From positions 2,500,211 to 2,564,210 of the forward strand of contig CAWIMX010000001.1 in the NCBI GenBank assembly GCA_963837345.1: a stretch of 64,000 bases of DNA, read 5' to 3'. Source of the stretch: an uncultured Acidobacteriota bacterium (GTDB lineage: Bacteria; Acidobacteriota; Vicinamibacteria; Vicinamibacterales; CAVVIG01). This document shows, piece after piece, positions 7,477 to 49,175 of the stretch. Made by a program: the position numbers and the translations under genes. Under the pieces are notes generated by a model. The model did no database searches. It saw only the letters and a program-made list of their open reading frames with translations, and was not told the DNA's origin. Positions within the stretch are counted from its first letter, which is position 1, and every line of letters begins with the position of its first letter.

Positions 7477-8016
7477 TCGTCCACCACAATCGAAACCTCG
7501 CGCGGCTCGAGCGTCTCGAGGAACTCTCGCGTCGAGTCGGCGTCGAACCGGAGATCGCGCGCCTCGATGCAGAGGAAGAACTGGTTGCGGCTCGCGAGCG
7601 CGAACCGCGGCACGTTGAACACGGCGTGGTGCGGGCACGGCAGCCCGTTCAGCGCGAGCATGCCCAGCAGTGCGGCGAGCGCCGCGCCGAGCACCGTGCA
7701 CTCGAACGTCGGGGGAATGAACGCCGGCCAGCTGTTGAGCGGGCGGCCGCCGACGTTGATGGGATACGCGATCGCCGACACCCAGTACCTGCAGGGCGTA
7801 GCCGGCGCTCCCGCCGAAGATGCCGCCGAGAAGCACCACGAGCGGGAGGATTGTCCGCGGCGCGCCCAGCGCCTCGTGCAGGCCTTCGATCGGAAACGGC
7901 GAATAGGCGTCCATTGCGCGGTAGCCGGCCTCGCGCGCGCGCCGGGCCGCCTCGAGGAGGCGCCCCGGGTCGTCGAACTCGGCCATCACGCCGTAGAGAC
8001 GAGTGCCGTCGCTCAT
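7473..8016 (-). pseudogene. actD: alternative complex III subunit ActD, reading frame broken by one extra base (or assembly error)
   Basis: N-terminus [18 protein letters not shown]...GGSAGYALQ is in one frame and [29 protein letters not shown]... (ORF 7473..7781) is in another. The gene is 544 nt, which is 181 codons plus 1 nt. Minus strand reads ctg cag g tac tgg near 7788. Confidence 0.8.
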
Positions 8017-34386: not shown

Positions 34387-35520
34387 TCAGTTCGTCGACG
34401 CCGTTCCGCCCTCCGCCACAACCGAGTGTGTCTGTGTGCCGATTCCTTCGATCGTGCAGACGGCCGTGTCGCCCGCACGCATCCAGCGCGGCTCGGCGCG
34501 CTCGATGTTCGTGCCCGCCGGGCTGCCGCCCGAGATCACGTCGCCGGGGTTGAGCGTCAGGATGTCCGACGCGTAGTGCAGGAGCTCGTAGATGTTGTGG
34601 CTCATGCGGCTCGTGTTCGAGTCCTGCATCACCTCGCCGTTCAGCGTGAACGTGTGCCGCGTGTTCATCGGGTTCGGCAGGAACTCCTTCGGCACGATGA
34701 ACGGACCGAGCGGCCCGAACGTGTCGTGATTCTTGCCGACCAGCCAGTCCGAGCCGCCCATCTTCCGGTCGCCGCGGCCGCCGCGGTCCGACACGTCGAT
34801 CTGGATCGTGTAGCCGAAGATGTAGTCGGCGGCGCTCGCCACCGGCACGTACTTGGCGGGCTTGCCGATCACGACGTCGAACTCGCACTCGAAGTCGATG
34901 TTGGTGCGGCCCCTGGGCATCACGATCGGATCGTTGGCGCCGGTGACGACCGTGGGCGACTTCATGAAGAGGTACGGGTTGTCGCGCGTGTCGCCGGCCT
35001 GCCGCTCCCAGATGCCCGGCGCCGACACGGCCTGCGAGGCCGGCTCCGGCGCCGCGCCCGACCGCTGCTGCTGGGCGGCGATGCCTTCGGTGTGTTCGGT
35101 GTAGTTCCCGCCGGCGTTGAGGATGAGAGAGGGCCGCACCGGCGGCAGCACGCGGAGGCCGTCGAGGGCATACGCATAGGCCGGCTGGCTGGCGGCGGTC
35201 GAGACGTCGCGGGCGATGGCCTGCAGGCGCCCCTGCCAGTCGCCGTATCCGGTGATGAGCGCGTTCATGGTCGCCGGGGCGGTGAGCTTCGGCGCCGACT
35301 GGTTGCGCCCTTCGAAGGCGGCATTTGCCGCTGCGATGTCGACCACCCGGGTGTCGTTGAGCACGAGACCGACGAAGGGTTGATCGTTGCGGCTGAAGGT
35401 GCCGACCTTGTAGGGCACCGCCGGCCCGCCCGACTGGGCGTCGGTGGCCTGGTTGCAGCCGGTGAGTCCGACTCCGAGCGCGACGACGACGAGCGTGCTT
35501 CGCGTGCGACTTCCGGTCAT
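34387..35520 (-). CDS. fumarylacetoacetate hydrolase (FAH) family protein with lipoprotein signal
   Basis: ATG at 35520, 7 nt after GGAGG. Lipobox LTGC. The FAH-fold C-terminal region includes ECEFDVVIGK, IFGYTIQIDVSDR and GDVISGGSPAG. Confidence 0.8.
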   Translation of the reverse strand: MTGSRTRSTLVVVALGVGLTGCNQATDAQSGGPAVPYKVGTFSRNDQPFVGLVLNDTRVVDIAAANAAFEGRNQSAPKLTAPATMNALITGYGDWQGRLQAIARDVSTAASQPAYAYALDGLRVLPPVRPSLILNAGGNYTEHTEGIAAQQQRSGAAPEPASQAVSAPGIWERQAGDTRDNPYLFMKSPTVVTGANDPIVMPRGRTNIDFECEFDVVIGKPAKYVPVASAADYIFGYTIQIDVSDRGGRGDRKMGGSDWLVGKNHDTFGPLGPFIVPKEFLPNPMNTRHTFTLNGEVMQDSNTSRMSHNIYELLHYASDILTLNPGDVISGGSPAGTNIERAEPRWMRAGDTAVCTIEGIGTQTHSVVAEGGTASTN

Positions 35521-35843
35521 GCACACCTCCAGTGTGAGGCGCCATTCTATCGCTCCGAGGGGCGGTCACCGCAAGAGGCCGTCGGGCGACGTTCGGGCGG
35601 CTTCCGATGCGCCTCGTCCGGTGCAACCGCTCGTTCGGCGGCCTGTCACCTGCACTCCTGTCTCCGCCTCCTGACTCACGCCATTCGGGTGGCACGATTC
35701 GAACGTGAGACCGCGGCATAGCCTTGACTGAGGGGGCGCTCGACGGCTCCCAGAAGTCGGCATCGTGCTTGACAGGACCGCCGCCGATCGCCCTGCCGGG
35801 CTCTCATTGGACGGTGTTGAAAGACCGGAATGAAAGAAGACCG

Positions 35844-35933
35844 ACGTAACTGACCCGTCCACCGATTCGGAGCAGGTCCACCCGCGGCCGTTCAGCAAAG
35901 GGCGCGGCCGACGGGTGCAGCCGCGTGTTGGGC
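35844..35933 (-). repeat. degenerate terminal attC-like site (attC5)
   Basis: On the minus strand, GCCCAAC (35927-35933) is followed by arms ACGCGGCTGCACCCGTCGGCCG / CGGCCGCGGGTGGACCTGC homologous to the other attCs. The expected GTTRRRY is missing, and the nearest candidate is GTTACGT (35844-35850). Confidence 0.4.
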
Positions 35934-36382
35934 CGCCCGTTCACCGTATCGGGATGCATTGGAGATCCAGGCGGCAAGACGGAGGCCACCGGGTCGCAGC
36001 AGGTCAAAACTGTGTAGATGCCGGAAGAAGAAGCCACAGCCCCCACGACAGTACCGCTTCGAAAGATCGGTAGAAGAACGCCGACTCCTCGACGGACTCG
36101 CACGCCACGGCAACGCCGGGAAGGTACGTGCGAAAGGCGGCGACGAGGGTGGGTGAGGCGTCAGCTCCGTAGACAGTGAGGCCCTCGTCAACCAGGACCT
36201 TCGTGATAGGAAACCGGGACCCGCAACCGAGGTCGAGCACACTAGCATGGTGCGGTAGCGAGCGCGCCCACGCGCGCAACATGCCGGACACCGATACCGC
36301 CGGAAGAACTGCCGCGGCCGGCGAGAAACTCGGCGGCGATCCGTTCGTATCCGTTCGCGAGACTTGCCGCGTGCTTCCCCAT
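35892..36382 (-). pseudogene. class I SAM-dependent methyltransferase cassette gene, broken by two frameshifts
   Basis: Three consecutive frames read MGKHAASLANGYERIAAEF...GIG, then LRAWARSLPHHASVLDLGCGS...FEAVLSWGLW, then FDLLRPGGLRLAAWI... Confidence 0.7.
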
Positions 36383-36396
36383 CTGCTGGCGCAGCG

Positions 36397-36469
36397 GTCT
36401 AACGTCCAGGCTTCAGCCGCGCCGGCTCAGGATCGCACCAGCCGGCGTCGGCTGCAAGCCGTGTTAGGC
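36397..36469 (-). repeat. attC site (attC4)
   Basis: On the plus strand, GTCTAAC...GTTAGGC flank arms GTCCAGGCTTCAGCCGCGCCGGC / GCCGGCGTCGGCTGCAAGCCGT with bulged bases. The site lies 15 nt after the parE stop. Confidence 0.8.
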
Positions 36470-36484
36470 TGCGTCTCGACTCGG

Positions 36485-36799
36485 TTACGACTGATCTTGG
36501 CGCCACTTCGCAAAGTCTCTCGACCCGTGCAGAAATGCGTGAATGACCACATGGTCGGCTGAGACTTGGTAGATCAGGCGATACCGGAATACGAACAGTT
36601 CTCGCTTCGTTCCGTCGCCGAACTCCGGAACGATCCGACCCCGGTCGGCGAGCGTGCCGAGCGACGATGCGGCCTCGAGGGCAGCCTCAAGAACCCGAAC
36701 CGCCTGGTCCCGCGAGTCCCGAGCGATGTAGGTAATGACCTCGTCGAGGCCGCCGCGGGCGGATTCGGCCCAGATTACTTCGCGGCGCCGAGGAGCCAC
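36485..36799 (-). CDS. parE: ParE/RelE-family type II toxin
   Basis: 104 aa. ...GLDEVITYIARDS...GRIVPEFGDGTKRELFVFRYRLIYQVSADHVVIHAFLHGSRD is the ParE_toxin pattern. It overlaps the upstream antitoxin gene by 25 nt. Confidence 0.85.
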   Translation of the reverse strand: MAPRRREVIWAESARGGLDEVITYIARDSRDQAVRVLEAALEAASSLGTLADRGRIVPEFGDGTKRELFVFRYRLIYQVSADHVVIHAFLHGSRDFAKWRQDQS

Positions 36800-36972
36800 T
36801 TCCGGCGCAACTCCGCCTCGACCTGCTCGTGAGGAATGGTGCGCCCCGCCGCAGCGTCGGCCTCACCGCGCTCGACGGCCTGCAGCACGTACAGGTGGTA
36901 CAGCACGTCGTCGAGGCTGCAGTCTTCAGGCAACCGGTCGAGAAGGGCGCGGACCGTTTCTTTGGTCGTCAT
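36775..36972 (-). CDS. putative antitoxin of the ParE module
   Basis: 65 aa (MTTKETVRALLDRLPEDCSLDDVLYHLYVLQAVERGEADAAAGRTIPHEQV...). It sits upstream of and overlaps the toxin, which is the canonical TA organisation. Confidence 0.7.
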   Translation of the reverse strand: MTTKETVRALLDRLPEDCSLDDVLYHLYVLQAVERGEADAAAGRTIPHEQVEAELRRKWLLGAAK

Positions 36973-37021
36973 GAGAAGTGGTTCCAGTATACGCGGAGCC
37001 TGCCGGTTGTCTGGCTCAGCA

Positions 37022-37082
37022 GCCTAACGACAACGCATCACCAGTGCGGCACGTTCGTCTTCTTGGTTCGCTGTCGTCACCA
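37022..37082 (-). repeat. attC-like site of a different sequence type (attC3)
   Basis: On the minus strand, TGGTGAC-GACAGCG...GCGTTGTC-GTTAGGC (61 bp). The core GTTAGGC is perfect and the inverse core is degenerate. It starts 2 nt after the stop of the 62-aa ORF. Confidence 0.5.
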
Positions 37083-37084
37083 GC

Positions 37085-37273
37085 TCAGTTCGAGTTGACG
37101 GGCGGTACACCTGCTAGATTCATCCGTATTATCGCAAGATTCGACATGATCGCGTACATTGCCGGAGCACTCTGCCGCGTCGACGGCAATGCCTTCAGGA
37201 GTTCGACAATGCCGCTCAGGGCCTTGAAGATCTCCGTCGCCTCGTTTTGCGTCAGGATGATCTGCGCGTCCAT
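37085..37273 (-). CDS. orphan cassette ORF (62 aa)
   Basis: MDAQIILTQNEATEIFKALSGIVELLKALP... with AT-richer codons than the host genes. An attC-like site follows directly. No family recognised. Confidence 0.45.
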   Translation of the reverse strand: MDAQIILTQNEATEIFKALSGIVELLKALPSTRQSAPAMYAIMSNLAIIRMNLAGVPPVNSN

Positions 37274-37368
37274 GTGACCTCCCCAGCCTCGATGACCGTC
37301 TGGCCTCTCGCTACCACCGACGTCCAGCCGGCAAGTCGCGATTGCTGCAGATACCGATCCGTCTTGTC

Positions 37369-37440
37369 CGCCAACGTCCAGCCTTCAGCCGCGGCGGCTC
37401 TCGATGCGTCAGCCGCCGACGGCTGCAAGCCGTGTTAGCC
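37369..37440 (-). repeat. attC site (attC2)
   Basis: On the plus strand, CGCCAAC GTCCAGCCTTCAGCCGCGGCGGC ... GCCGCCGACGGCTGCAAGCCGT GTTAGCC. The arms are nearly identical to those of attC4. Confidence 0.8.
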
Positions 37441-37818
37441 GGCCGATTCCTGATAATCCTGAAGTCGTATGGACGGCACGTCGACCCGGAAGAAAAAGGG
37501 GAGCAACCACAACGGCTGCGGCACTGAGGACAAACTGGTCTATCAGGGGCCGCTTCCGCGTGATCTTCGTTGCCGCAGCACTGACGACGAGCCATTGCAC
37601 AAGCGCCACAGCGACCGCGAGCGCGCCCGGACAGGCACAGAAGCAGGGCAACGAACAGCGTTCGGACGAACACGCCGTCGCCGTGGACGACGGCGGAAAT
37701 GGCGAAGATCGCCAGACCCGGACCTACGAGGTACGGTTGCGAAAATGGCCACAGCGCGGCCACGTCCACGGCTCCGCCCACTCCCCATGCGCTTTGCCCC
37801 AGTCGACGTGAGTGGCCC

Positions 37819-37900
37819 GGCCAACGCGCGGCCTGAGCCGCGCGACTCGGCGACAGCCTAGCACGGACGATGGGCGCGACGGCTCCAAACCGTGTTAGGC
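37819..37900 (-). repeat. attC site (attC1)
   Basis: On the plus strand, GGCCAAC GCGCGGCCTGAGCCGCGCG ... GGCGCGACGGCTCCAAACCGT GTTAGGC. The right arm is homologous to attC2 and attC4. The site lies 6 nt after the stop of the 143-aa ORF. Confidence 0.7.
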
Positions 37901-37906
37901 CGATGT

Positions 37907-38338
37907 TCACTCAGCGTACCCTGGCCGAATCAGCGCCTCACTCTCCTTCAAGCCTGGCGGGGAGCTTTTCGCATCTGTCACCGAAACCCAGACGAAACGC
38001 TCGTAGTTTGTGTTGGGGTTGTTGTTGTACTGGGCCCTGAGGTGGAGCATCTGCTCGTCGGACATGGGTAAGCCCTGAGGCGTGAGCCGCGCGTCGTCAA
38101 ACATCATTATCTGAATCGGCTTGGAAGCGTCTTCTTTGGTAACAACCGCGTGGAGAACCTGGGCGGCGAAGAACTTGTCTTTGAGGCCATTGGGTGTCAC
38201 GTACACGGTGCGAATCACTCCGAACTTCCCGACAAGCTTCCAATCCTGCGAAGTCTGTGAGCTTTGGCCCGCGAGCAAAGCGCCGAAAGCGACAAAGTTC
38301 GTGAAAGCGCCCACCGCTGAAGCGATCGGTCGAGTCAT
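37907..38338 (-). CDS. orphan cassette ORF, secreted protein (143 aa)
   Basis: ATG at 38338 preceded by GGAGGAGGAGGGAG. Signal-like N-terminus (AVGAFTNFVAFGALLAG). Lower-GC codons. No family recognised. Confidence 0.6.
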   Translation of the reverse strand: MTRPIASAVGAFTNFVAFGALLAGQSSQTSQDWKLVGKFGVIRTVYVTPNGLKDKFFAAQVLHAVVTKEDASKPIQIMMFDDARLTPQGLPMSDEQMLHLRAQYNNNPNTNYERFVWVSVTDAKSSPPGLKESEALIRPGYAE

Positions 38339-38394
38339 CTCCCTCCTCCTCCGCGTTCCTGTGTAGCGTCCACGACCGTCGGGACGTTCACTCG

Positions 38395-38401
38395 GCCTAA
38401 C
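38395..38401 (-). other. isolated core site GTTAGGC marking the upstream edge of the cassette array
   Basis: Minus strand reads ...GCGCCCTACTTCAATACTT GTTAGGC. No convincing inverse-core or arm partner lies within 140 nt upstream. Confidence 0.45.
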
Positions 38402-38590
38402 AAGTATTGAAGTAGGGCGCTCTAATGCCTTCGCAGCCATTCGCGCTCGCTCGGATCGCGAACGGCGACCCGATCCTGTTGACCGGTCGCATCTTAGCAT
38501 CCGGCGTGCCAGCGCGGAGGCGCGATGGTTGGCTGCGAGGGCGTGTATGACTGCGAACGCGTCGCAGCGAATCAGCCCTGCCGCCTTGCC

Positions 38591-41032
38591 CTACTCGGAT
38601 CGCAACGCCTGCACGACGTCCACGCGGGCGGCTCGTGCCGCCGGCATGATCGACGCCGTGACCGCGGCGCCCACGAGCACACCCGCCGCGGCCGCCAGCG
38701 GCAGGGCGCCCGGCAGCTGCACGTGTTCGAGGTAGCTCGCGGCGACCCGGGCGAACAGGTAGCCTCCCAGCGCGCCGGCGACGATGCCGATCGCGGCAAT
38801 CAGCGCGCCTTCGCCGAGCACGCGGGTCAGCAGGTGCCGGGGCGTGGACCCGATGGCGAGCCGTACGCCGAACTCGCGCGTGCGCGCGCTCACCGAGAAG
38901 GCGAGCACGCCCGCCACGCCCACCACGGCGATGAGGAGCGCCACCCCCGCGAACCCCGAGAAGACGAACGCATTCAGCCGCTCGGGTGCCAGCACCTCCG
39001 CGCGCACGTCCTCGAGCGTGGCGGCGTGCTCGACGGGTTGATCCGCAAAGAGCTCGCGGATGATCCGCGTGGCCGGCGCCACGAGCGCGTAGGGATCGCC
39101 GCTCGCGTGCACGAACAGCCGGCCGCCGCCGAATTCCTGGCGCGTCGGGTGGTACACCGTCAGCGCCGGGCCCGGCACCACGTTCTCGTCGTCCACGTCG
39201 GCGGCGATGCCGACGATGCGGCGGGGCTCGGGCTTGACGTTGATGAAGGCCATGATCGGGTCGGTCCACGAGAGGTGACGGTTGAGCGCGTCGCCGTTCG
39301 GGAACAGCCGGTTCGCGACGCTCTGGCTCACGATCACCACGCGCTCGCTCTCGTTGCGGTCGTCCGCGTTGAAATCGCGTCCGGCCACGAGCGGCACGCC
39401 GAGGGCGTCGAAGAATCCCGGAGACACGGATCGGAAGCGCGCTCTCGGATTCTCCTCGCCGTCGGCGGGCGCAAAGCCCTCGACGGAAAACTGGAAACCG
39501 GGCCCGAAGCTGCCGGCGTCGCGCCAGGGCACGAAGCTGCCGAGCGCCACGCCGTCCACGCCGGGCAACGCGCCGATGCGCCTCGCGACGTCGTCGTAGT
39601 AGTCGGCGATCTGGGCGGCATTGCGCCCACCCGCCACCGTCGGGACGTCGATCGCGAGCACGCGCCGCATGTCGTAGCCGGTGCGTGCCGTCTGCAGCGT
39701 GATGAGCGTGGCGACGAGCATGCCCGCGCCGGCCAGCAGCACGAACGACAGGGCGATTTGCGTCACAGCAAACGCGCGCAACCGGCGGTTGGTGCCCGGC
39801 GTGATCCGCACGCCGCCGCTCGCCAGGCCGAAGCCGCCCGGCGCGTGTGCCGATGGCAGTCGGGGCACGAAGGCGAGGAGCACGGCGGCGGCGATGGCCA
39901 GGCCTGCGCCCACCCACAGCAGGCTCGCGTCGACGGTGACGTCGAGCGCGCGGATCGAGAACCGCGCGGCGTACCGCGCCAGCACCGCCGCGAGCGGCCG
40001 TGCGAGGAGCACGCCGAGCGCAGCGCCCGCACCGCAAAGCAGAAGACTTTCGGCGAGCAGCGTGCGCCGCAGCGCTCCCGTGCCCGCGCCAAGCGCCGCG
40101 CGCACGGCCAGCTCGCCCTCGCGGCGCACCGATCGCGCCAGGATCAGGTTCGCGACGTTCGAGCACGCGATGATGAAGACGAACCCGGCGGCGGCGAGCA
40201 GCACGAGCAGGACGGTGCGCGCGGGGGCCGTGATCTGATCGCGCAGCCGCCGGGCGCTCACCTGGCCCTGCGCCTTCGGCGAATACGCCTCGGGATGCGC
40301 CGCGACCATGCCGGCGTAGACGGCCTTCAACTCGGCCTGTGCCGACTCGAGCGTCTGGCCGGGAGCCAGCCGGCCGAACAGCTCCGTCATTCGATGCACG
40401 CGGCCGGTCACCATCGTGGCCGAGAGGTGGTGGGGGCTCGTGACGACATTGGCGATGATCTCGGTGTCGGCGGGGTACGGCACCGAGGGCTCGAGGACGC
40501 CGATGATCGTGGCGGATCTGGAGCCGAGCCGCACGGTCTTGCCCACCACCGACGGATCGCCGTTCAACGCCGTCGTCCAGAAGCGATAGGTGAGCACCGC
40601 GACGCCCGCCGCATCGGGCCCGTCATCGTCGGCCGTGATGAGGCGGCCGGCGACGGGGCGCAGGCCCATCACGTCGAAGAAGGAGCCGCCGACGACGCCG
40701 GCCTGGACGACGCGCGGCTCGCCGAGGCCGATCATCGTGAAGCCGATCGTGGAGAAGTCGCCGAATGCCCCAATCGTGTGGACGCGCGCCTTGAAGTCGT
40801 CGATCTCCGGCACCGAGAACGTGGTGTTCTCGACGCCGAGACCGGGCGCACTCTGCCGGATGTAGATCAGGTGCTCTTCGTCGCGATTGGCCAGCGGGCG
40901 CAGCAACACTCCGCGCACCACGCTGAAGATGGCGGCGTTGGCGCCGATGCCGAGCGCGAGGGTGACGACGATCGTCGCCGCGAGGCCCTTCACCCTGGCG
41001 AGGGATCGGAGCGCAAACCGAAGGTCGGTCAT
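38591..41032 (-). CDS. ADOP-family duplicated FtsX/MacB-like permease
   Basis: 813 aa. N-terminus MTDLRFALRSLARVKGLAATIVVTLALGIGANAAIF. Two FtsX-like 4-TM modules, each preceded by a large periplasmic domain. Confidence 0.85.
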   Translation of the reverse strand: MTDLRFALRSLARVKGLAATIVVTLALGIGANAAIFSVVRGVLLRPLANRDEEHLIYIRQSAPGLGVENTTFSVPEIDDFKARVHTIGAFGDFSTIGFTMIGLGEPRVVQAGVVGGSFFDVMGLRPVAGRLITADDDGPDAAGVAVLTYRFWTTALNGDPSVVGKTVRLGSRSATIIGVLEPSVPYPADTEIIANVVTSPHHLSATMVTGRVHRMTELFGRLAPGQTLESAQAELKAVYAGMVAAHPEAYSPKAQGQVSARRLRDQITAPARTVLLVLLAAAGFVFIIACSNVANLILARSVRREGELAVRAALGAGTGALRRTLLAESLLLCGAGAALGVLLARPLAAVLARYAARFSIRALDVTVDASLLWVGAGLAIAAAVLLAFVPRLPSAHAPGGFGLASGGVRITPGTNRRLRAFAVTQIALSFVLLAGAGMLVATLITLQTARTGYDMRRVLAIDVPTVAGGRNAAQIADYYDDVARRIGALPGVDGVALGSFVPWRDAGSFGPGFQFSVEGFAPADGEENPRARFRSVSPGFFDALGVPLVAGRDFNADDRNESERVVIVSQSVANRLFPNGDALNRHLSWTDPIMAFINVKPEPRRIVGIAADVDDENVVPGPALTVYHPTRQEFGGGRLFVHASGDPYALVAPATRIIRELFADQPVEHAATLEDVRAEVLAPERLNAFVFSGFAGVALLIAVVGVAGVLAFSVSARTREFGVRLAIGSTPRHLLTRVLGEGALIAAIGIVAGALGGYLFARVAASYLEHVQLPGALPLAAAAGVLVGAAVTASIMPAARAARVDVVQALRSE

Positions 41033-43525: not shown

Positions 43526-46153
43526 TCACAAACGGCGGATGGCGCCAGGGAGTTCGGTGCGACCGGCGTGCCAGGCCGGCACGAACGACGCGGCGAGCAC
43601 GATGCCGGCCACGACGAGGAACGCGCCTCCGAAGGAGATCGCATCGGTGGGGCCGACGCCATAGAGCAGGGTGGCCGCCAGGCGCGACGTGGCGAGCGAC
43701 AACACGAGGCCAACGCTGATGCCCAGGCTGCCGAGGCGCAGGCCTCGACGGAGAAACAGGCGGACGATGCCGGCACGTTGAGCGCCGAGGGCCAGCCGAA
43801 TGCCGATCTCGTGCGCGCTCTGCTGCACCGTGTATGACAAGAGTCCGTAGATTCCCAGCGCGGCGAGGCCGATCGCCATCGCGCTGACGACCGCCAGCAT
43901 CGAGGCCGCAATCTCGTAGCCGAACAGGCCGACCTTCACCTGGTCGCCCAGGGCATGAGCCTCGAGAATCGGGAGGTTGGGGTCGAGTGCGCGGACGTCA
44001 TTCCGCACGCGATCCATGAGCGTCGACACGTCGAGCGCGGCCGACCGGACGTGAATCGTCATGTCCGGCTGGTAGTCCTGACCGAACGGCATGTATACGT
44101 GCCCGACGGGCTGTTCGGTGAGGGTCTGGTGTTTCACGTCGCCGGCGACGCCGACGATCGTCCACCAGGACCCGTGCAAGCGGATCCGCTTCCCGAGCGC
44201 AGCCTCGGCGCCAGTCCAGAACCGGCGCGCCATGGCCTCGTCCACGACGACGACGAGCGGGCCGTCGGCCCTGTCGAAGCGGTTGAACGCACGGCCTGCG
44301 GCGAGTGGAATGCGGAGGGCCTGAAAGTAGCCGTCGGCGACCACCGTAAACGGGATGTTCAGGCTTTCGTCGCGCCGCGGCTCGTAGCCCTCGACGCCGG
44401 TTCGCCGCCAGGGGCCCGGAACGAGGCGCAGCGGCACCACGCTCGCGAGGGTCGCCGCGTCCACGCCAGGCGCGGCGCGGAGGCGATCGAGCAGACGCTC
44501 GTAGAAATCGCGGCCCTGCACCTCGTCGTAGCCGCTCGGCTTCACGTCCACCGACACCGACACGACGCCGCGGGGATCGAAGCCGGCATCCGCATGCCGT
44601 GCGACCAGCAGCGTCCGGCCGGCAAGACCGGCGCCCACGAGCAGCAGCAGCGACACCGCGATCTGCGAGACCACGAGACCGGCACGGAGCCGGCCCTTCG
44701 AGCGCCCGCCGCTGAATCCTTCGTCCTTGATCACCGAAACGAGCGGCACGCGCGCCGTGCGGAGCGCCGGCACGAACCCGAACAGGAGCGCGCTGACGAC
44801 GGACAACGCCAGGGCGAAGGCGATATCGGCCAGACCGATGGACATCTCAAACGACGCGGGGGCGGCCGCTGCCGCCGCCGACGATCCGGCCGGGTTCAGG
44901 TGCCCGATGGCGAGCGAGAGCGCCAGCCCGGCCAACGCTCCCGGCACGGCCAGCACCAGACATTCGAAGAGGAGGAGGCGCATCACGCGCACGCGGGACG
45001 CGCCCAGGGCACGCCGCACCGCGATTTCGCCCCGGCGCCCGACGCTGCGCGCCAGCACCAGGTTGGCGAGATTTGCCGACACCACGACGAGGAGCAGCAC
45101 GCCGACGGCGCCCATCAACGCCACGATGGGCAGGATGTAGGTTTGTGCGCCGAATGGCGATTGCCAGAGGGGAACGGCGGCGGCACGGGTCGGCACCGTG
45201 TCCATGGGGAAATCGGCCGAGAGCTGCCTCGAGAGCACGCCGATCTGGGCCGCGGCCGCCGAATGCGACAGGCCCGGCCTGACGTGGCCGAGGATCGCGA
45301 ACGGCCCCGCGTCGCGATCGTGCAGCACATCGGGCGGCGCCAGCTGCGGCTGCATCGTCACCGGGACGAACAGATCCGACTGCAGGGCGACAAAGGAGCC
45401 GTGGAACCCGCCGCTCGTCACACCGGCGATCGTCAGCGTGTGACCGTTGACGATCACGGTGCGGCCGACAACGTCCCTGGCCGCATCGAATGTGCGGCGC
45501 CACAGTCCTTCGCTGATCACGGCGATGGGCGGCTGGCCCGGGATCCCGTCATCGGACGGCAGGAGCGTGCGGCCGAGCGATGCCGAGACACCGAGCGTCT
45601 GGAAATAGTTGCCGCTCACGATCTCGCCCCAGATGCGCTCGCCGCGATCGCCGAGGCCGAGGTTCAATGGCAGCACCATCGCGGCGGCCAGGCTCGTGAA
45701 GCTCGAATCGTGATCGCGAAGATATTCGTAGTCCGGATACGGCAGCGGGACGGCGTCGCCGTTCCGCGTGCGCCCAAGAATCGTCGTGAGGCCGGCGGCA
45801 TCGGGGACGCCTGGCAGCGGCCGGAGGACGGCCGCCTTGAACAGCGCAAAGGCGCCGGCGTTCCCGGCGATGCCGATTCCGAGCACGAGCACGACGATTG
45901 CCGAGAAGGCCCGGCTGCGCTTCAGCAGACGGACGGCGTAGCCCGCGTCCTGTGCGAGACCGCCGAGCAGGTCGCGCCACCGGCTGCGCCAGACCGAACC
46001 CATCGAGTCGCGCGTGAGCGACAGGTTCCCGAACTCCTTACGCGCGGCAAGCCGGGCGGCATCCGGACTGTCGCCGCGGGCGATGCGCTCGTGCTCGCTG
46101 ATCGCCAGATGGCCGCGAATCTCGTCGTCCAGGTCGTGCTGGTCGGGCCTCAT
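43526..46153 (-). CDS. ADOP-family duplicated FtsX/MacB-like permease (in operon with padR)
   Basis: 875 aa with the N-terminal prefix ...DDEIRGHLAISEHERIARGDSPDAARLAARKEFGN typical of ADOP proteins. It starts 3 nt after the PadR stop. Confidence 0.85.
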   Translation of the reverse strand: MRPDQHDLDDEIRGHLAISEHERIARGDSPDAARLAARKEFGNLSLTRDSMGSVWRSRWRDLLGGLAQDAGYAVRLLKRSRAFSAIVVLVLGIGIAGNAGAFALFKAAVLRPLPGVPDAAGLTTILGRTRNGDAVPLPYPDYEYLRDHDSSFTSLAAAMVLPLNLGLGDRGERIWGEIVSGNYFQTLGVSASLGRTLLPSDDGIPGQPPIAVISEGLWRRTFDAARDVVGRTVIVNGHTLTIAGVTSGGFHGSFVALQSDLFVPVTMQPQLAPPDVLHDRDAGPFAILGHVRPGLSHSAAAAQIGVLSRQLSADFPMDTVPTRAAAVPLWQSPFGAQTYILPIVALMGAVGVLLLVVVSANLANLVLARSVGRRGEIAVRRALGASRVRVMRLLLFECLVLAVPGALAGLALSLAIGHLNPAGSSAAAAAAPASFEMSIGLADIAFALALSVVSALLFGFVPALRTARVPLVSVIKDEGFSGGRSKGRLRAGLVVSQIAVSLLLLVGAGLAGRTLLVARHADAGFDPRGVVSVSVDVKPSGYDEVQGRDFYERLLDRLRAAPGVDAATLASVVPLRLVPGPWRRTGVEGYEPRRDESLNIPFTVVADGYFQALRIPLAAGRAFNRFDRADGPLVVVVDEAMARRFWTGAEAALGKRIRLHGSWWTIVGVAGDVKHQTLTEQPVGHVYMPFGQDYQPDMTIHVRSAALDVSTLMDRVRNDVRALDPNLPILEAHALGDQVKVGLFGYEIAASMLAVVSAMAIGLAALGIYGLLSYTVQQSAHEIGIRLALGAQRAGIVRLFLRRGLRLGSLGISVGLVLSLATSRLAATLLYGVGPTDAISFGGAFLVVAGIVLAASFVPAWHAGRTELPGAIRRL

Positions 46154-46156
46154 GGC

Positions 46157-46510
46157 TCACTCCTCGGCCGACGTGGGGTTCATGATGCGGCCGATGGCCG
46201 CGACGAGCTGCGCCCAGCGATCCTGCTCGCGCGACAGCTGCGCCTTGCCGGCCGCCGTGAGCCGGTAGTACTTCGCCCGCTGGTTCGCCTCGCTCACTCC
46301 CCATTCCGATTTCAGCCAGCGGCGCTTCTCGAGGCGATGGAGCGCCGGGTAGAGCGAGCCGGTTTCGACCTTGAGCAGATCCTCGGACTGGGCGCGAATC
46401 GCCTGGCCGATGCCGTGGCCGTGCTGCGGCCCCCACTGGAGCGTCCGCAGAATCAGCATGTCGAGGGTGCCCTGGAGGAGCTCGAGGCGGCGGTCGGGTG
46501 GGTTGGCCAT
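46157..46510 (-). CDS. PadR family transcriptional regulator
   Basis: 117 aa. LQGTLDMLILRTLQWGPQHGHGIGQAI...GSLYPALHRLEKRRWLKSEWG is the winged-helix PadR pattern. Confidence 0.9.
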   Translation of the reverse strand: MANPPDRRLELLQGTLDMLILRTLQWGPQHGHGIGQAIRAQSEDLLKVETGSLYPALHRLEKRRWLKSEWGVSEANQRAKYYRLTAAGKAQLSREQDRWAQLVAAIGRIMNPTSAEE

Positions 46511-46574: not shown

Positions 46575-49175
46575 CTACTCGCAGCGCAACGCGGCCATCG
46601 GATCGACCCGCGACGCGCGCCAGGCAGGTACGAGCGCGGCGGCCACCGCCGTGCCCGCCAACACCAGCACGACAGAGATGAACACCAGCGGATCGGTCGG
46701 CGCGGTGTCGTACAAGAGCGATGTCAGCAGTCGTGTGAGCCCGAGCGCCGCCACGACGCCCGCCGCCGCGCCCGCCGCGGTCAGACCGAGCGCCTGGCGA
46801 ACCACCATGCCGACAATCTCGCCCGGACGCGCGCCGAGCGCGACGCGGACCCCAATCTCCTGCGTACGCCGCGACACCGAGTACGCCATCACGCCGTAAA
46901 TGCCGACGGCGGCGAGCGCGAGCGCGGCCAGCGCGAACGCTTCGAGGAGCACGGTCATCGCGCGGGATTGTGCCAGCGTTCCGTCCACCACGTCCCGCAT
47001 CGTCCGGACGTCGGCCACCGGCACCTCGGGGTCGAGCCCCCGTACGACGGCCCGGACGGCCGGCGCGAGAAGGAGCGGATCGCCGGGCGTGCGAACCACG
47101 AGCGTCATCAGGCCGATCGCCAGCTGCGTGTGCGGCACATAGACGACGGGACCGGCCGTGTCCGCGAGACCCGAGAACGCGATGTCGTCCGCGACGCCGA
47201 CGACTTCCGCCTCGCCGTCGTTCGGCAGCCCGATCGAGACGTGAATGTGCTTGCCGAGCGGATCGTCGGCGCCGAAGGTCTGCCGCACGAGCGATTCGCT
47301 CACGATCGCGACGACGGGGGCATCGAGGGTGTCGCGCTCGTCGAACTCGCGGCCCTTCCGAATCGCGATGTGCATCGTCGGGAAGAACCCGGGCGTCACC
47401 GGCAGCACGGTGGTGGACGCCGCCTCGCCGGGCCCGGGTGGCGGCTGGTCGAGCCGCCAATAGCCGGTGCCGATGGCAAGACCGGTCATTGGAAGGAAAC
47501 TGATGCCGGCCGCCGAATCGACGCCGGGGAGGGCGCTCAGGCGATCGAGGGCCTGCGAGTAGAAGCCGGCCGAGACCCGCCCGTCGTTCCAGCGGTCGCC
47601 TGAAAGCGTGATGCGCGCCGTCAGGAGCCCGTCCGCGCGGAAGCCCGGGTCGACCTGCTGCAGACGCATGAAGCTCACGCCCAGCAGTCCGGCTCCGGCG
47701 AGCAGTACCACCGAAAACGCGACTTCGGCCGCGGCGAGCGACGAAAGCGCGCGGCGTGACGCGGGTGTCGTGCGACTGGTTCCGGCGTCGCGTCCCGCGT
47801 CGCTTCGGCCGCCCGTGGAGATGATCGCGGGCACGACGCCGAAGATGAAGCCGGTCGCCAGGGACACGCCGAGCGTGAACAGCACGACGGGCAGATCGAG
47901 CCGGGCCTCGTCGAGCCGCGGCACGTTGACACGGTTGGCCACGAGTGCCACGAGCGCGCGGCGCAGCACGACCGCCATCCCCAGGCCCAGCGAGCCTCCG
48001 AGGGCGGCGATGAACGTGCTCTCGGTCAGCATCTGCCGGACCAGCCGGGCGCGGCCCGCGCCGAGCGCGGCGCGCAGCGACAGCTCCCGGCCGCGCGCCG
48101 TGCTGCGGGCGAGGAGCAGGCTCGCGACGTTGGCGCAGGCGAGCAGCAGCACCAGGAGCACGGCGCCGCTCAGGACGAGCAGCGCGGGTCGGACGGCGCC
48201 CACGGTCTGCTCCAGGACGGGCACCACCAGGATCGTCCGGCCGCGGTTCCGCTGGGGCTGCTCCGAGACGAGCTGTGCGGCCAGCCCGCTCATTTCGGCG
48301 CGCGCCTGTTCGAGCGACACGCCGTCGCGCAGCCTGGCGAGGCCGTGCGAAAAGCCGCGGCCGGGGGCCGCGCGCATCGCGGCCGGGCTCTGGCCGTACG
48401 GGAGGTAGAAGTTGCCGCGCACGCCCTCGATCGTGAACCCCGCGGGCAGGACGCCGACGATCGTGCGAGGGCGGCCGCCCGCGACGATCGACGAGCCCAC
48501 GACGTCCGCGCGGCCGCCGAAGCGGGAGATCCAGAACTGGTAGTCGAGCAGGATCACGCTCGCGTCCTGGCCGAAGTCCTCGTCGGGTGTGTACACGCGC
48601 CCCACGACCGCCGGGATCCCGAGGACCGTGAACACGTTCGCCGTCGCCAGGAAGCCGGGGATCTCTTCCGCGACGCCGTTGAACGTGAATGTCAGCCGGT
48701 ATGCGCCCACCATCCCGATGCCGTCGAACGATCGGCTCCGTTCGCGCCACTCGATCAGGTTGGCCGAGGCAATCACGTTCGGTCTGAGGCTGTCGCGGCC
48801 CGTCTCCCACAGGCTGACGACGTGGTCCGGGTCGCGATAGGGCAGCGGCTTGAGCATCACGCCGCGGACGACCGAATACACCGCGGCCGTGACGCCGATC
48901 CCGAGCGCGAGGATCAGGATGGTGGCGAGCGAGGCCGCGGGGCTGCGCTGGAGGACGCGGACGGCATAGCGCAGGTCCTGGCGGAGCTGGTCGAGCCAGA
49001 CGGGGATCCACGCCGCCCGCGTCCGCTCGGCGGCGAGGGCCGTGCTGCCGAACGCGCGGAGGGCCGCGCGACGGGCCTCGTCTGGGCTCAGGCCGCGCGC
49101 GATGTTGTCGTCGATCTCGCGCTCGAGGTGATCGCGGATGTCGTCGGGCAGGTCGTCGAGCGGGTGGCGGCTCAT
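46575..49175 (-). CDS. ADOP-family duplicated FtsX/MacB-like permease
   Basis: 866 aa. The prefix MSRHPLDDLPDDIRDHLEREIDDNIARGLSPDEARRAALRAFG is followed by duplicated FtsX-like modules. Confidence 0.85.
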   Translation of the reverse strand: MSRHPLDDLPDDIRDHLEREIDDNIARGLSPDEARRAALRAFGSTALAAERTRAAWIPVWLDQLRQDLRYAVRVLQRSPAASLATILILALGIGVTAAVYSVVRGVMLKPLPYRDPDHVVSLWETGRDSLRPNVIASANLIEWRERSRSFDGIGMVGAYRLTFTFNGVAEEIPGFLATANVFTVLGIPAVVGRVYTPDEDFGQDASVILLDYQFWISRFGGRADVVGSSIVAGGRPRTIVGVLPAGFTIEGVRGNFYLPYGQSPAAMRAAPGRGFSHGLARLRDGVSLEQARAEMSGLAAQLVSEQPQRNRGRTILVVPVLEQTVGAVRPALLVLSGAVLLVLLLACANVASLLLARSTARGRELSLRAALGAGRARLVRQMLTESTFIAALGGSLGLGMAVVLRRALVALVANRVNVPRLDEARLDLPVVLFTLGVSLATGFIFGVVPAIISTGGRSDAGRDAGTSRTTPASRRALSSLAAAEVAFSVVLLAGAGLLGVSFMRLQQVDPGFRADGLLTARITLSGDRWNDGRVSAGFYSQALDRLSALPGVDSAAGISFLPMTGLAIGTGYWRLDQPPPGPGEAASTTVLPVTPGFFPTMHIAIRKGREFDERDTLDAPVVAIVSESLVRQTFGADDPLGKHIHVSIGLPNDGEAEVVGVADDIAFSGLADTAGPVVYVPHTQLAIGLMTLVVRTPGDPLLLAPAVRAVVRGLDPEVPVADVRTMRDVVDGTLAQSRAMTVLLEAFALAALALAAVGIYGVMAYSVSRRTQEIGVRVALGARPGEIVGMVVRQALGLTAAGAAAGVVAALGLTRLLTSLLYDTAPTDPLVFISVVLVLAGTAVAAALVPAWRASRVDPMAALRCE

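Follow-up and report, generated by a model that had tools for sequence, protein, structure and literature searches.

The DNA analysed here, called the window in its full length of 64 kb, comes from the chromosome of an uncultured Acidobacteriota bacterium, and our analysis centred on the interval between two of its minus-strand genes, one for an ADOP permease and one of the FAH family. This interval holds a 2.7-kb stretch in which minus-strand open reading frames (ORFs) alternate with repeats that have the architecture of attC, the recombination site of integron cassettes. A preliminary description of the same DNA had proposed five such sites and assigned the stretch to the attC-site clusters that have no integron integrase (CALIN); the site numbers 1-5 used below follow that description, and all coordinates are those of the window. 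The sites, the leader that opens the array and the two flanking genes are listed below, with the scores of two covariance models (R1 and R2) and the z values of folding.

34387-35526, minus strand: FAH-family gene, the flank of the array beyond the degenerate last site
35857-35933, minus strand: attC site 5, degenerate, at the end of the array (R1 24.5 bits, E = 5e-5; R2 27.6 bits)
36397-36469, minus strand: attC site 4, near the family consensus (R1 93.8 bits, E = 1.1e-27; fold z = -5.5)
37022-37082, minus strand: 'site 3' of the preliminary description, not a functional attC, with GTTAGGC at 37028-37022
37369-37440, minus strand: attC site 2 (R1 71.8 bits, E = 1.8e-20; hairpin z -3.1 to -4.1)
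37819-37900, minus strand: attC site 1, 82 nt, a long-loop variant (R1 41.3 bits, E = 1.6e-10; R2 46.1 bits)
38395-38574, minus strand: attI-like leader ending in the crossover core GTTAGGC (38401-38395), recognised by BLASTN matches to the leaders of relatives
38591-41032, minus strand: ADOP permease (TIGR03434, 688 bits), the flank at the leader end

The sites for R1 were collected by a scan for the 19-nt pattern CTAACACGGNTTGNAGCCG in one genome per species, which gave 113 loci, mostly from metagenome-assembled genomes (MAGs) of Acidobacteriota or Vicinamibacterales. R1 was built from 60 distinct aligned sites, none of them from the window, and was searched against the whole window with filters off; the broader model R2 was built from 87 sites of 23 loci. 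Both models are clade-specific and their source genomes carry arrays that adjoin integron integrases; they serve as a proxy for the generic attC model of IntegronFinder (Rfam contains no attC family). The comparison loci from other genomes, 120 altogether, bear L-numbers. The family consensus is about 73 nt long (GCCTAACACGGCTTGCAGCCG...CGGCTGAAGCCTGGACGTTAGGC), and in the 60-site alignment it has 26 base pairs, which form a 7-bp R helix, an asymmetric internal loop and a long L helix interrupted by two single-base bulges. Pairing holds in 93% of the alignment cells, versus 27-45% when the partners are slid, and seven pairs show compensatory changes.

Three minus-strand stretches of the window (37900-37819, 37440-37369 and 36469-36397; repeat families D1/D2) are homologous to one another and correspond to sites 1, 2 and 4. 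All three begin with RYYYAAC at the 5' end and finish with GTTRRRY at the 3' end, the core pairs (R''/R') being GCCTAAC/GTTGGCC for site 1, GGCTAAC/GTTGGCG for site 2 and GCCTAAC/GTTAGAC for site 4. Covariance-model searching had been suggested as a check in the preliminary description; performed in proxy form with our clade-specific models, it gave significant matches where that description had placed its sites and nowhere else in the window, sites 1, 2 and 4 being matched at exactly its coordinates with 41-94 bits and E values from 1e-10 to 1e-27. R1 and R2 both match the same four minus-strand sites, the minus-strand scores at the sites always far exceed the plus-strand scores, and the next-best match of R1 elsewhere in the 64 kb reaches 16 bits. 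A lone weak match of both models on the plus strand (7614-7653; 16-17 bits, E = 0.03-0.05), which ends in GTTGAAC...GTTCAGC, lies within a coding region and probably arose by chance.

The fourth match is site 5, whose cores GCCCAAC/GGTGGAC are degenerate. The site itself is real (24.5-27.6 bits), but its end in the model match is at 35857, with the R' core GGTGGAC, and not at 35844 as had been proposed. Site 3 has no match at E<=10 with R1 or R2 in the window search and lacks RYYYAAC. Four of the five proposed attC sites therefore stand, one of them degenerate, whereas site 3 was not detected by either model and folds with z = -0.6.

Sites 2 and 4 fold as long imperfect hairpins (z -3.1 to -5.5 versus shuffles). 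In each hairpin the R helix has 7 bp, the internal loop is 2 versus 5 nt, and the plus-strand 3' arm carries two single-base bulges. Site 1 fits this architecture through the model alignment only, and the stretches of sites 3 (37082-37022) and 5 (35933-35844) fold no better than their shuffles (z about -0.6). Extrahelical bases opposite the AAC triplet of the bottom strand are the arrangement of the recombinogenic strand (Nivina et al., PMC5027507). Since the bulges here lie on the plus-strand 3' arm opposite AAC, the plus strand is the bottom strand and the cassettes are read on the minus strand, as the ORFs are. The stops of the ORFs preceding sites 1, 3 and 4 lie 6, 2 and 15 nt from the sites.

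The four attC sites are clustered on the minus strand with start-to-start spacings of 460, 971 and 536 nt. To search for an integrase we used an IntI1 query whose sequence was validated over its full length against NF011946 at 799 bits. By tblastn with this query over the window nothing was found below E = 1.8, and a profile HMM made from four integrases, when run on all fragments of the window in six frames, gave nothing below E = 0.99; the absence of a tyrosine recombinase from the window, noted in the preliminary description, was thus borne out by both methods. The window covers at least 25 kb on each side of the array. A CALIN is defined by at least two attC sites within 4 kb and no integron integrase nearby (Cury et al. 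2016, PMC4889954). Because the array has two or more attC sites less than 4 kb apart, and neither intI nor an intI pseudogene lies within about 25 kb on each side, the earlier assignment to this class is supported; a complete integron, in which intI adjoins attI and the cassettes, is not what the locus shows.

The same attC family is found beside integron integrases in other genomes. Full-length integrases, about 50% identical to IntI1, were detected by tblastn in L011, L081 and L034, and partial or frameshifted ones in several other loci. Those of L011 and L081 score 437 bits on TIGR02249, for which the cutoff is 265. Beside the integrases of L011, L081 and L034 R1 finds long one-strand arrays of the family, and arrays of the same family adjoin an integrase also in L095 and L120. 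The integrases of L119 and L120, two loci fetched via protein search, are 82% and 76% identical, respectively, to that of L011. All the full-length integrases (L011, L081, L034, L095, L119 and L120) are co-oriented with their cassettes, the leader lying downstream of the intI stop. The classical divergent layout was observed in L043, L008 and L073, where the integrases are frameshifted or truncated.

The array opens with GTTAGGC at 38401-38395, which the preliminary description had reported as a lone core. The motif is present, but it is not lone: it forms the core of a conserved leader of about 180 nt and, as judged from the sequence, is the core of a conserved attI-like site. The leader matches by BLASTN those of L096/L116 (E = 2e-17), L011 (6e-12), L112 (3e-9) and L119 (2e-5). 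It is placed between the stop of intI and the first cassette in L011, L119 and L120, and after an integrase fragment in L022. The core is located about 257 nt past the intI stop in L119 and L120, where the leader ends in TCTACTCCAATACTTGTTAG and TCTAC-TGAATACTAGTTAG, respectively. Conservation of the leader breaks off at GTTAG, where the cassettes start. The 20-nt core CCTACTTCAATACTTGTTAG (38416-38397) occurs with at most one mismatch in only 6 of the 120 loci, and copies of the leader were denoted by the sequence TCTACTTCAATACTTGTTAG. Leader homology was judged by BLAST E-values and motif blocks; global percent identity was rejected as a measure, for shuffled sequences reach about 60%. The ADOP stop of the window lies 190 nt upstream of the GTTAG core, versus about 257 nt for the intI stop in the relatives, and the place of the integrase is taken by the ADOP gene both in the window and in L096. 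Two motifs were recognised within the leader.

38491-38499, minus strand: TGCTAAGAT, perhaps part of a cassette promoter (Pc) as its extended -10 element, proposed from its same position in six leaders
38545-38568, minus strand: palindromic box GCTGCGA-N5-TCGCAGTCATAC where the leader begins, with an inverted partial copy at 38442-38431

The first of these is situated about 95 nt upstream of GTTAG and is conserved in the leaders of L011, L096, L112, L119, L120 and L022; a two-hexamer promoter scan did not call it. The palindromic box and its inverted partial copy flank this motif and are also conserved among other leaders; one copy of the box in L011 overlaps the final intI codons. For the single box of the window a 'hybrid' origin, by deletion between two copies, was considered and set aside as weakly supported.

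Three of the comparison loci, L096, L116 and L068, belong to one MAG (MFD05442.bin.1.381), whose ADOP permease is 87-88% identical to that of the window (88% for the protein). At least 13 kb upstream of the ADOP gene are syntenic between this MAG and the window, with some insertions and deletions. After the ADOP stop the MAG has the same leader, followed by an array of more than 14 kb that holds different cassettes, a PemK toxin-antitoxin pair and insertions of IS110 and IS21. Apart from the attC sites, neither the cassette proteins nor the cassette DNA of the window have a match in this syntenic array; the cassettes have turned over between the orthologous loci. As the same ADOP gene and leader are combined with unlike cassettes, the block is not ordinary conserved DNA, and it is the platform that is shared and not the cargo. 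The comparison with syntenic relatives that had been suggested earlier, made in proxy form with one relative, did not refute the reading as a cassette array. Another contig of the same MAG carries an integrase-linked array (L011), and a third leader is found in L112.

Loci resembling either flank were examined as possible empty sites. The FAH loci L114 and L115 (78-81% identity) share the FAH gene only, have no attC and are uninformative. The ADOP loci L117 and L118 (76% identity) have other neighbours and no arrays, with neither leader nor attC, and are probably not orthologous. A clean empty site was thus not found among these four relatives. In the comparison loci an IS110-family transposase gene follows attC sites with the 3' core GTTGATATGG..., the same junction recurring in five loci (L096 5297-5369 and L116 16564-18046; also L025, L033, L062 and L112); this element has the appearance of an insertion sequence with attC sites as its target.

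The four attC sites delimit four cassettes of 576, 450, 972 and 540 nt. Their contents and the associated features, in the order in which they follow the leader, are listed below.

37907-38338, minus strand: ORF of cassette 1 (576 nt), 143 aa, predicted to be secreted, with a GGAGG ribosome-binding site before its ATG
37441-37818, minus strand: cargo of cassette 2 (450 nt), a small membrane-protein gene with a frameshift near 37650, recognised from ORF translations, no family match
37085-37273, minus strand: orphan ORF of 62 aa in cassette 3 (972 nt), no family match
36986-37013, minus strand: promoter-like CAGACA-16-TATACT before the toxin-antitoxin genes, the sole sigma-70-type match in 35400-38700
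36775-36972, minus strand: putative antitoxin of 65 aa in cassette 3, overlapping the ParE gene by 25 nt, no Pfam match
36485-36799, minus strand: ParE-family toxin of 104 aa in cassette 3 (PF05016, E = 1.3e-12, 48.5 bits)
35934-36382, minus strand: cargo of the last cassette (540 nt; 'cassette 5'), a pseudogene of a SAM-dependent methyltransferase in three frames with at least two frameshifts (PF13649 and PF08241)

The protein of cassette 1 has no match in Pfam or NCBIfam. A homologue with 47% identity is encoded in another Vicinamibacterales genome (L015 1307-1657, minus strand), where it is the first ORF after an intI remnant. The ParE toxin and the small overlapping gene upstream of it form, by sequence, a predicted type II pair of ParE/ParD-like arrangement, and homologues of the putative antitoxin stand upstream of ParE in cassettes of L026 and L058. 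Two successive cassettes of L120 (9507-10759) each contain a 104-aa ParE toxin with an 81-aa Unstab_antitox antitoxin, in reverse orientation to the array. The GTTAGGC at 37028 is located 56 nt ahead of the ATG of the putative antitoxin, and what comes after it is similar to the beginning of an L026 cassette that contains only the toxin-antitoxin genes. The arrangement suggests that cassette 3 probably consists of two fused cassettes, and site 3 may be their decayed junction. In the last cassette PF13649 and PF08241 cover the middle fragment (36291-36004), and other frames hold the N- and C-terminal parts. The cargo as previously described, a ParE toxin-antitoxin pair with orphan ORFs and decayed genes, was therefore recovered for the toxin, the orphan ORF and two frameshifted pseudogenes, the antitoxin being without a Pfam match.

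The window has a G+C content of 68.5%, and the G+C at third codon positions (GC3) of host genes is 0.90-0.92. Between the ADOP and FAH genes the G+C content falls to 0.58-0.66, and no ORF there has host-like codon usage; the GC3 of the cassette ORFs (0.59-0.85) lies below that of the host genes, which confirms the less GC-rich codon usage reported for the cargo. This foreign composition was counted in favour of a cassette array. The flanking genes had also been named correctly, the ADOP permease being verified by TIGR03434. Assignment of the chromosome to Acidobacteriota was right, because the closest relatives are MAGs of Acidobacteriota or Vicinamibacterales; the host probably belongs to Vicinamibacterales. 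Scans of the window with Rfam and for tRNA genes gave no match. Within 11 kb the window carries three permease paralogues of the ADOP/MacB type (38591-41032, 43526-46153 and 46575-49175), and a PadR regulator gene at 46157-46510 precedes one of them; the syntenic region of the relative is without the two upstream copies.

Taken together, we consider it very probable that the 2.7-kb stretch is a genuine and ordinary integron cassette array with no integrase gene at the locus. Decay has affected part of it: two cassettes are frameshifted pseudogenes and one or two sites are degenerate. Some results weigh against this reading. One proposed site failed with both models and another is weak; the array may, to judge from its two pseudogenised cassettes, be an inactive relic; the putative attI assignment is made on positional homology; and among the 120 integrases nearest to that of L011 (at least 70% identity) none lies on a contig of 4.05 Mb, the length of the one from which the window comes. 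The array may or may not be active in this genome, and the pseudogenes and worn sites suggest decay.

Other explanations of the locus were weighed against these data. It is improbable that the cassettes were inserted singly at a secondary, non-att site by an integrase encoded elsewhere and that the locus was never an integron platform. Integration at secondary sites is one of the listed origins of CALINs (Cury et al., PMC4889954), and the lack of an intI pseudogene in the window would agree with it; however, a random secondary site would not bring with it a leader of about 180 nt whose homologues in complete integrons lie next to the integrase and which stops, as they do, at GTTAG, and the relative has the same junction after the ADOP stop. 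We give very little credence to the view that the repeats are generic chromosomal palindromes following ORFs, such as REP-like elements or terminators. They are GC-rich hairpins directly past stop codons, as this view would expect, but they have no T-tract and a terminator scan found none at the sites, their RYYYAAC/GTTRRRY ends are conserved, and their bulges are fixed and their internal loop asymmetric. Moreover, the family occurs only in one-strand arrays, which adjoin integron integrases in other genomes, and has no copies elsewhere in the 64 kb. It is equally hard to believe that the locus is a complete integron whose integrase lies just outside the examined region, so that the CALIN would be an artefact of the limits of the window. 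No more than 64 kb of a contig of about 4 Mb are visible, which would allow for it; yet the array is bounded on both sides, by the leader at the ADOP gene and the degenerate last site at the FAH gene, and the intI position of this clade, about 257 nt upstream of the GTTAG core, is here held by the ADOP gene. An intI within 4 kb is excluded by the sequence of the window, and none lies within about 25 kb on either side.

The bottom strand of an attC site folds into an imperfect hairpin that is recognised by the integron integrase, which excises cassettes by recombination between two attC sites and inserts them at the G|TT of the attI core. If the array of the window worked in this way, the folded strand would be the plus strand, insertion would occur at the G|TT of 38401, and an integrase encoded elsewhere in the genome, or introduced from outside, would have to carry out both excision and insertion. 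The first cassettes would be read from a promoter in the leader, and the toxin-antitoxin cassette, with its own promoter, would probably stabilise the array. The locus most likely descends from a complete integron of the kind found in relatives, with a co-oriented intI directly upstream of the same leader; either intI would have been lost, or the locus would have become attached to the ADOP 3' end. The MAG of the syntenic relative holds at least three leaders, one with intI (L011) and two without (L096 and L112), so one integrase might serve several attI sites. We raise tentatively, as a possibility that we think rather unlikely, that the locus is a 'satellite' platform, in which attI and promoter are kept without an integrase at the same position after the ADOP gene in at least two diverged genomes and are repeatedly reloaded with new cassettes by a single integrase elsewhere.

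With this analysis the Acidobacteriota, a soil phylum that has received little study, gain a well-delimited example of a cassette array without an integrase. What is new is an attI-like leader on such an array and a pair of orthologous loci with different cargo; the general understanding of integrons is unchanged by the finding. The leader is a candidate attI for this integron clade, and the orthologous pair, with the same flanks and wholly different cassettes, is usable to test activity via an integrase supplied elsewhere.

CALINs are common and well described (PMC4889954, PMC9024848), with an average of about 5 sites in the data of Cury et al. 2016 (PMC4889954). The array of the window resembles these in being small and chromosomal, with cassettes of unknown function and no resistance genes; unlike the surveyed CALINs it keeps an attI-like leader, possibly with a promoter, that is homologous to the leaders of complete integrons in relatives. 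Surveys of CALINs leave attI unassessed because only a few classes have a described attI (PMC9024848). A model of an attC type specific to Acidobacteria already exists (Ghaly et al. 2021, PMC8352920). With the sedentary chromosomal integrons of Acidobacteriota in that work our system shares a homogeneous clade-specific attC family, mostly from Acidobacteriota or Vicinamibacterales MAGs, and long arrays; the locus of the window differs from the complete integrons in having no integrase.

In the 'atypical' integrons of Treponema intI is transcribed toward attI (PMC3607928). The relatives with full-length integrases are like this type in the co-orientation of intI and cassettes and in the leader past the intI stop; they belong to another phylum, however, and for the window, where intI is absent, the orientation is inferred from these relatives. 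Toxin-antitoxin cassettes bearing promoters are known in chromosomal integrons (Richard et al. 2024, PMC13108822). The ParE-type pair inside our array, with its own promoter-like site, is comparable to them, although the array is tiny, the pair is oriented forward and its function here is predicted. In Xanthomonas, chromosomal arrays and CALINs are found at conserved loci (bioRxiv 10.1101/2025.06.18.660453). There the neighbours are ilvD, lamG or secF and not an ADOP permease, and our comparison comprised one syntenic relative; the array of the window nevertheless resembles those of Xanthomonas in its conserved chromosomal position, its differing cassettes and the decay of integrase function.

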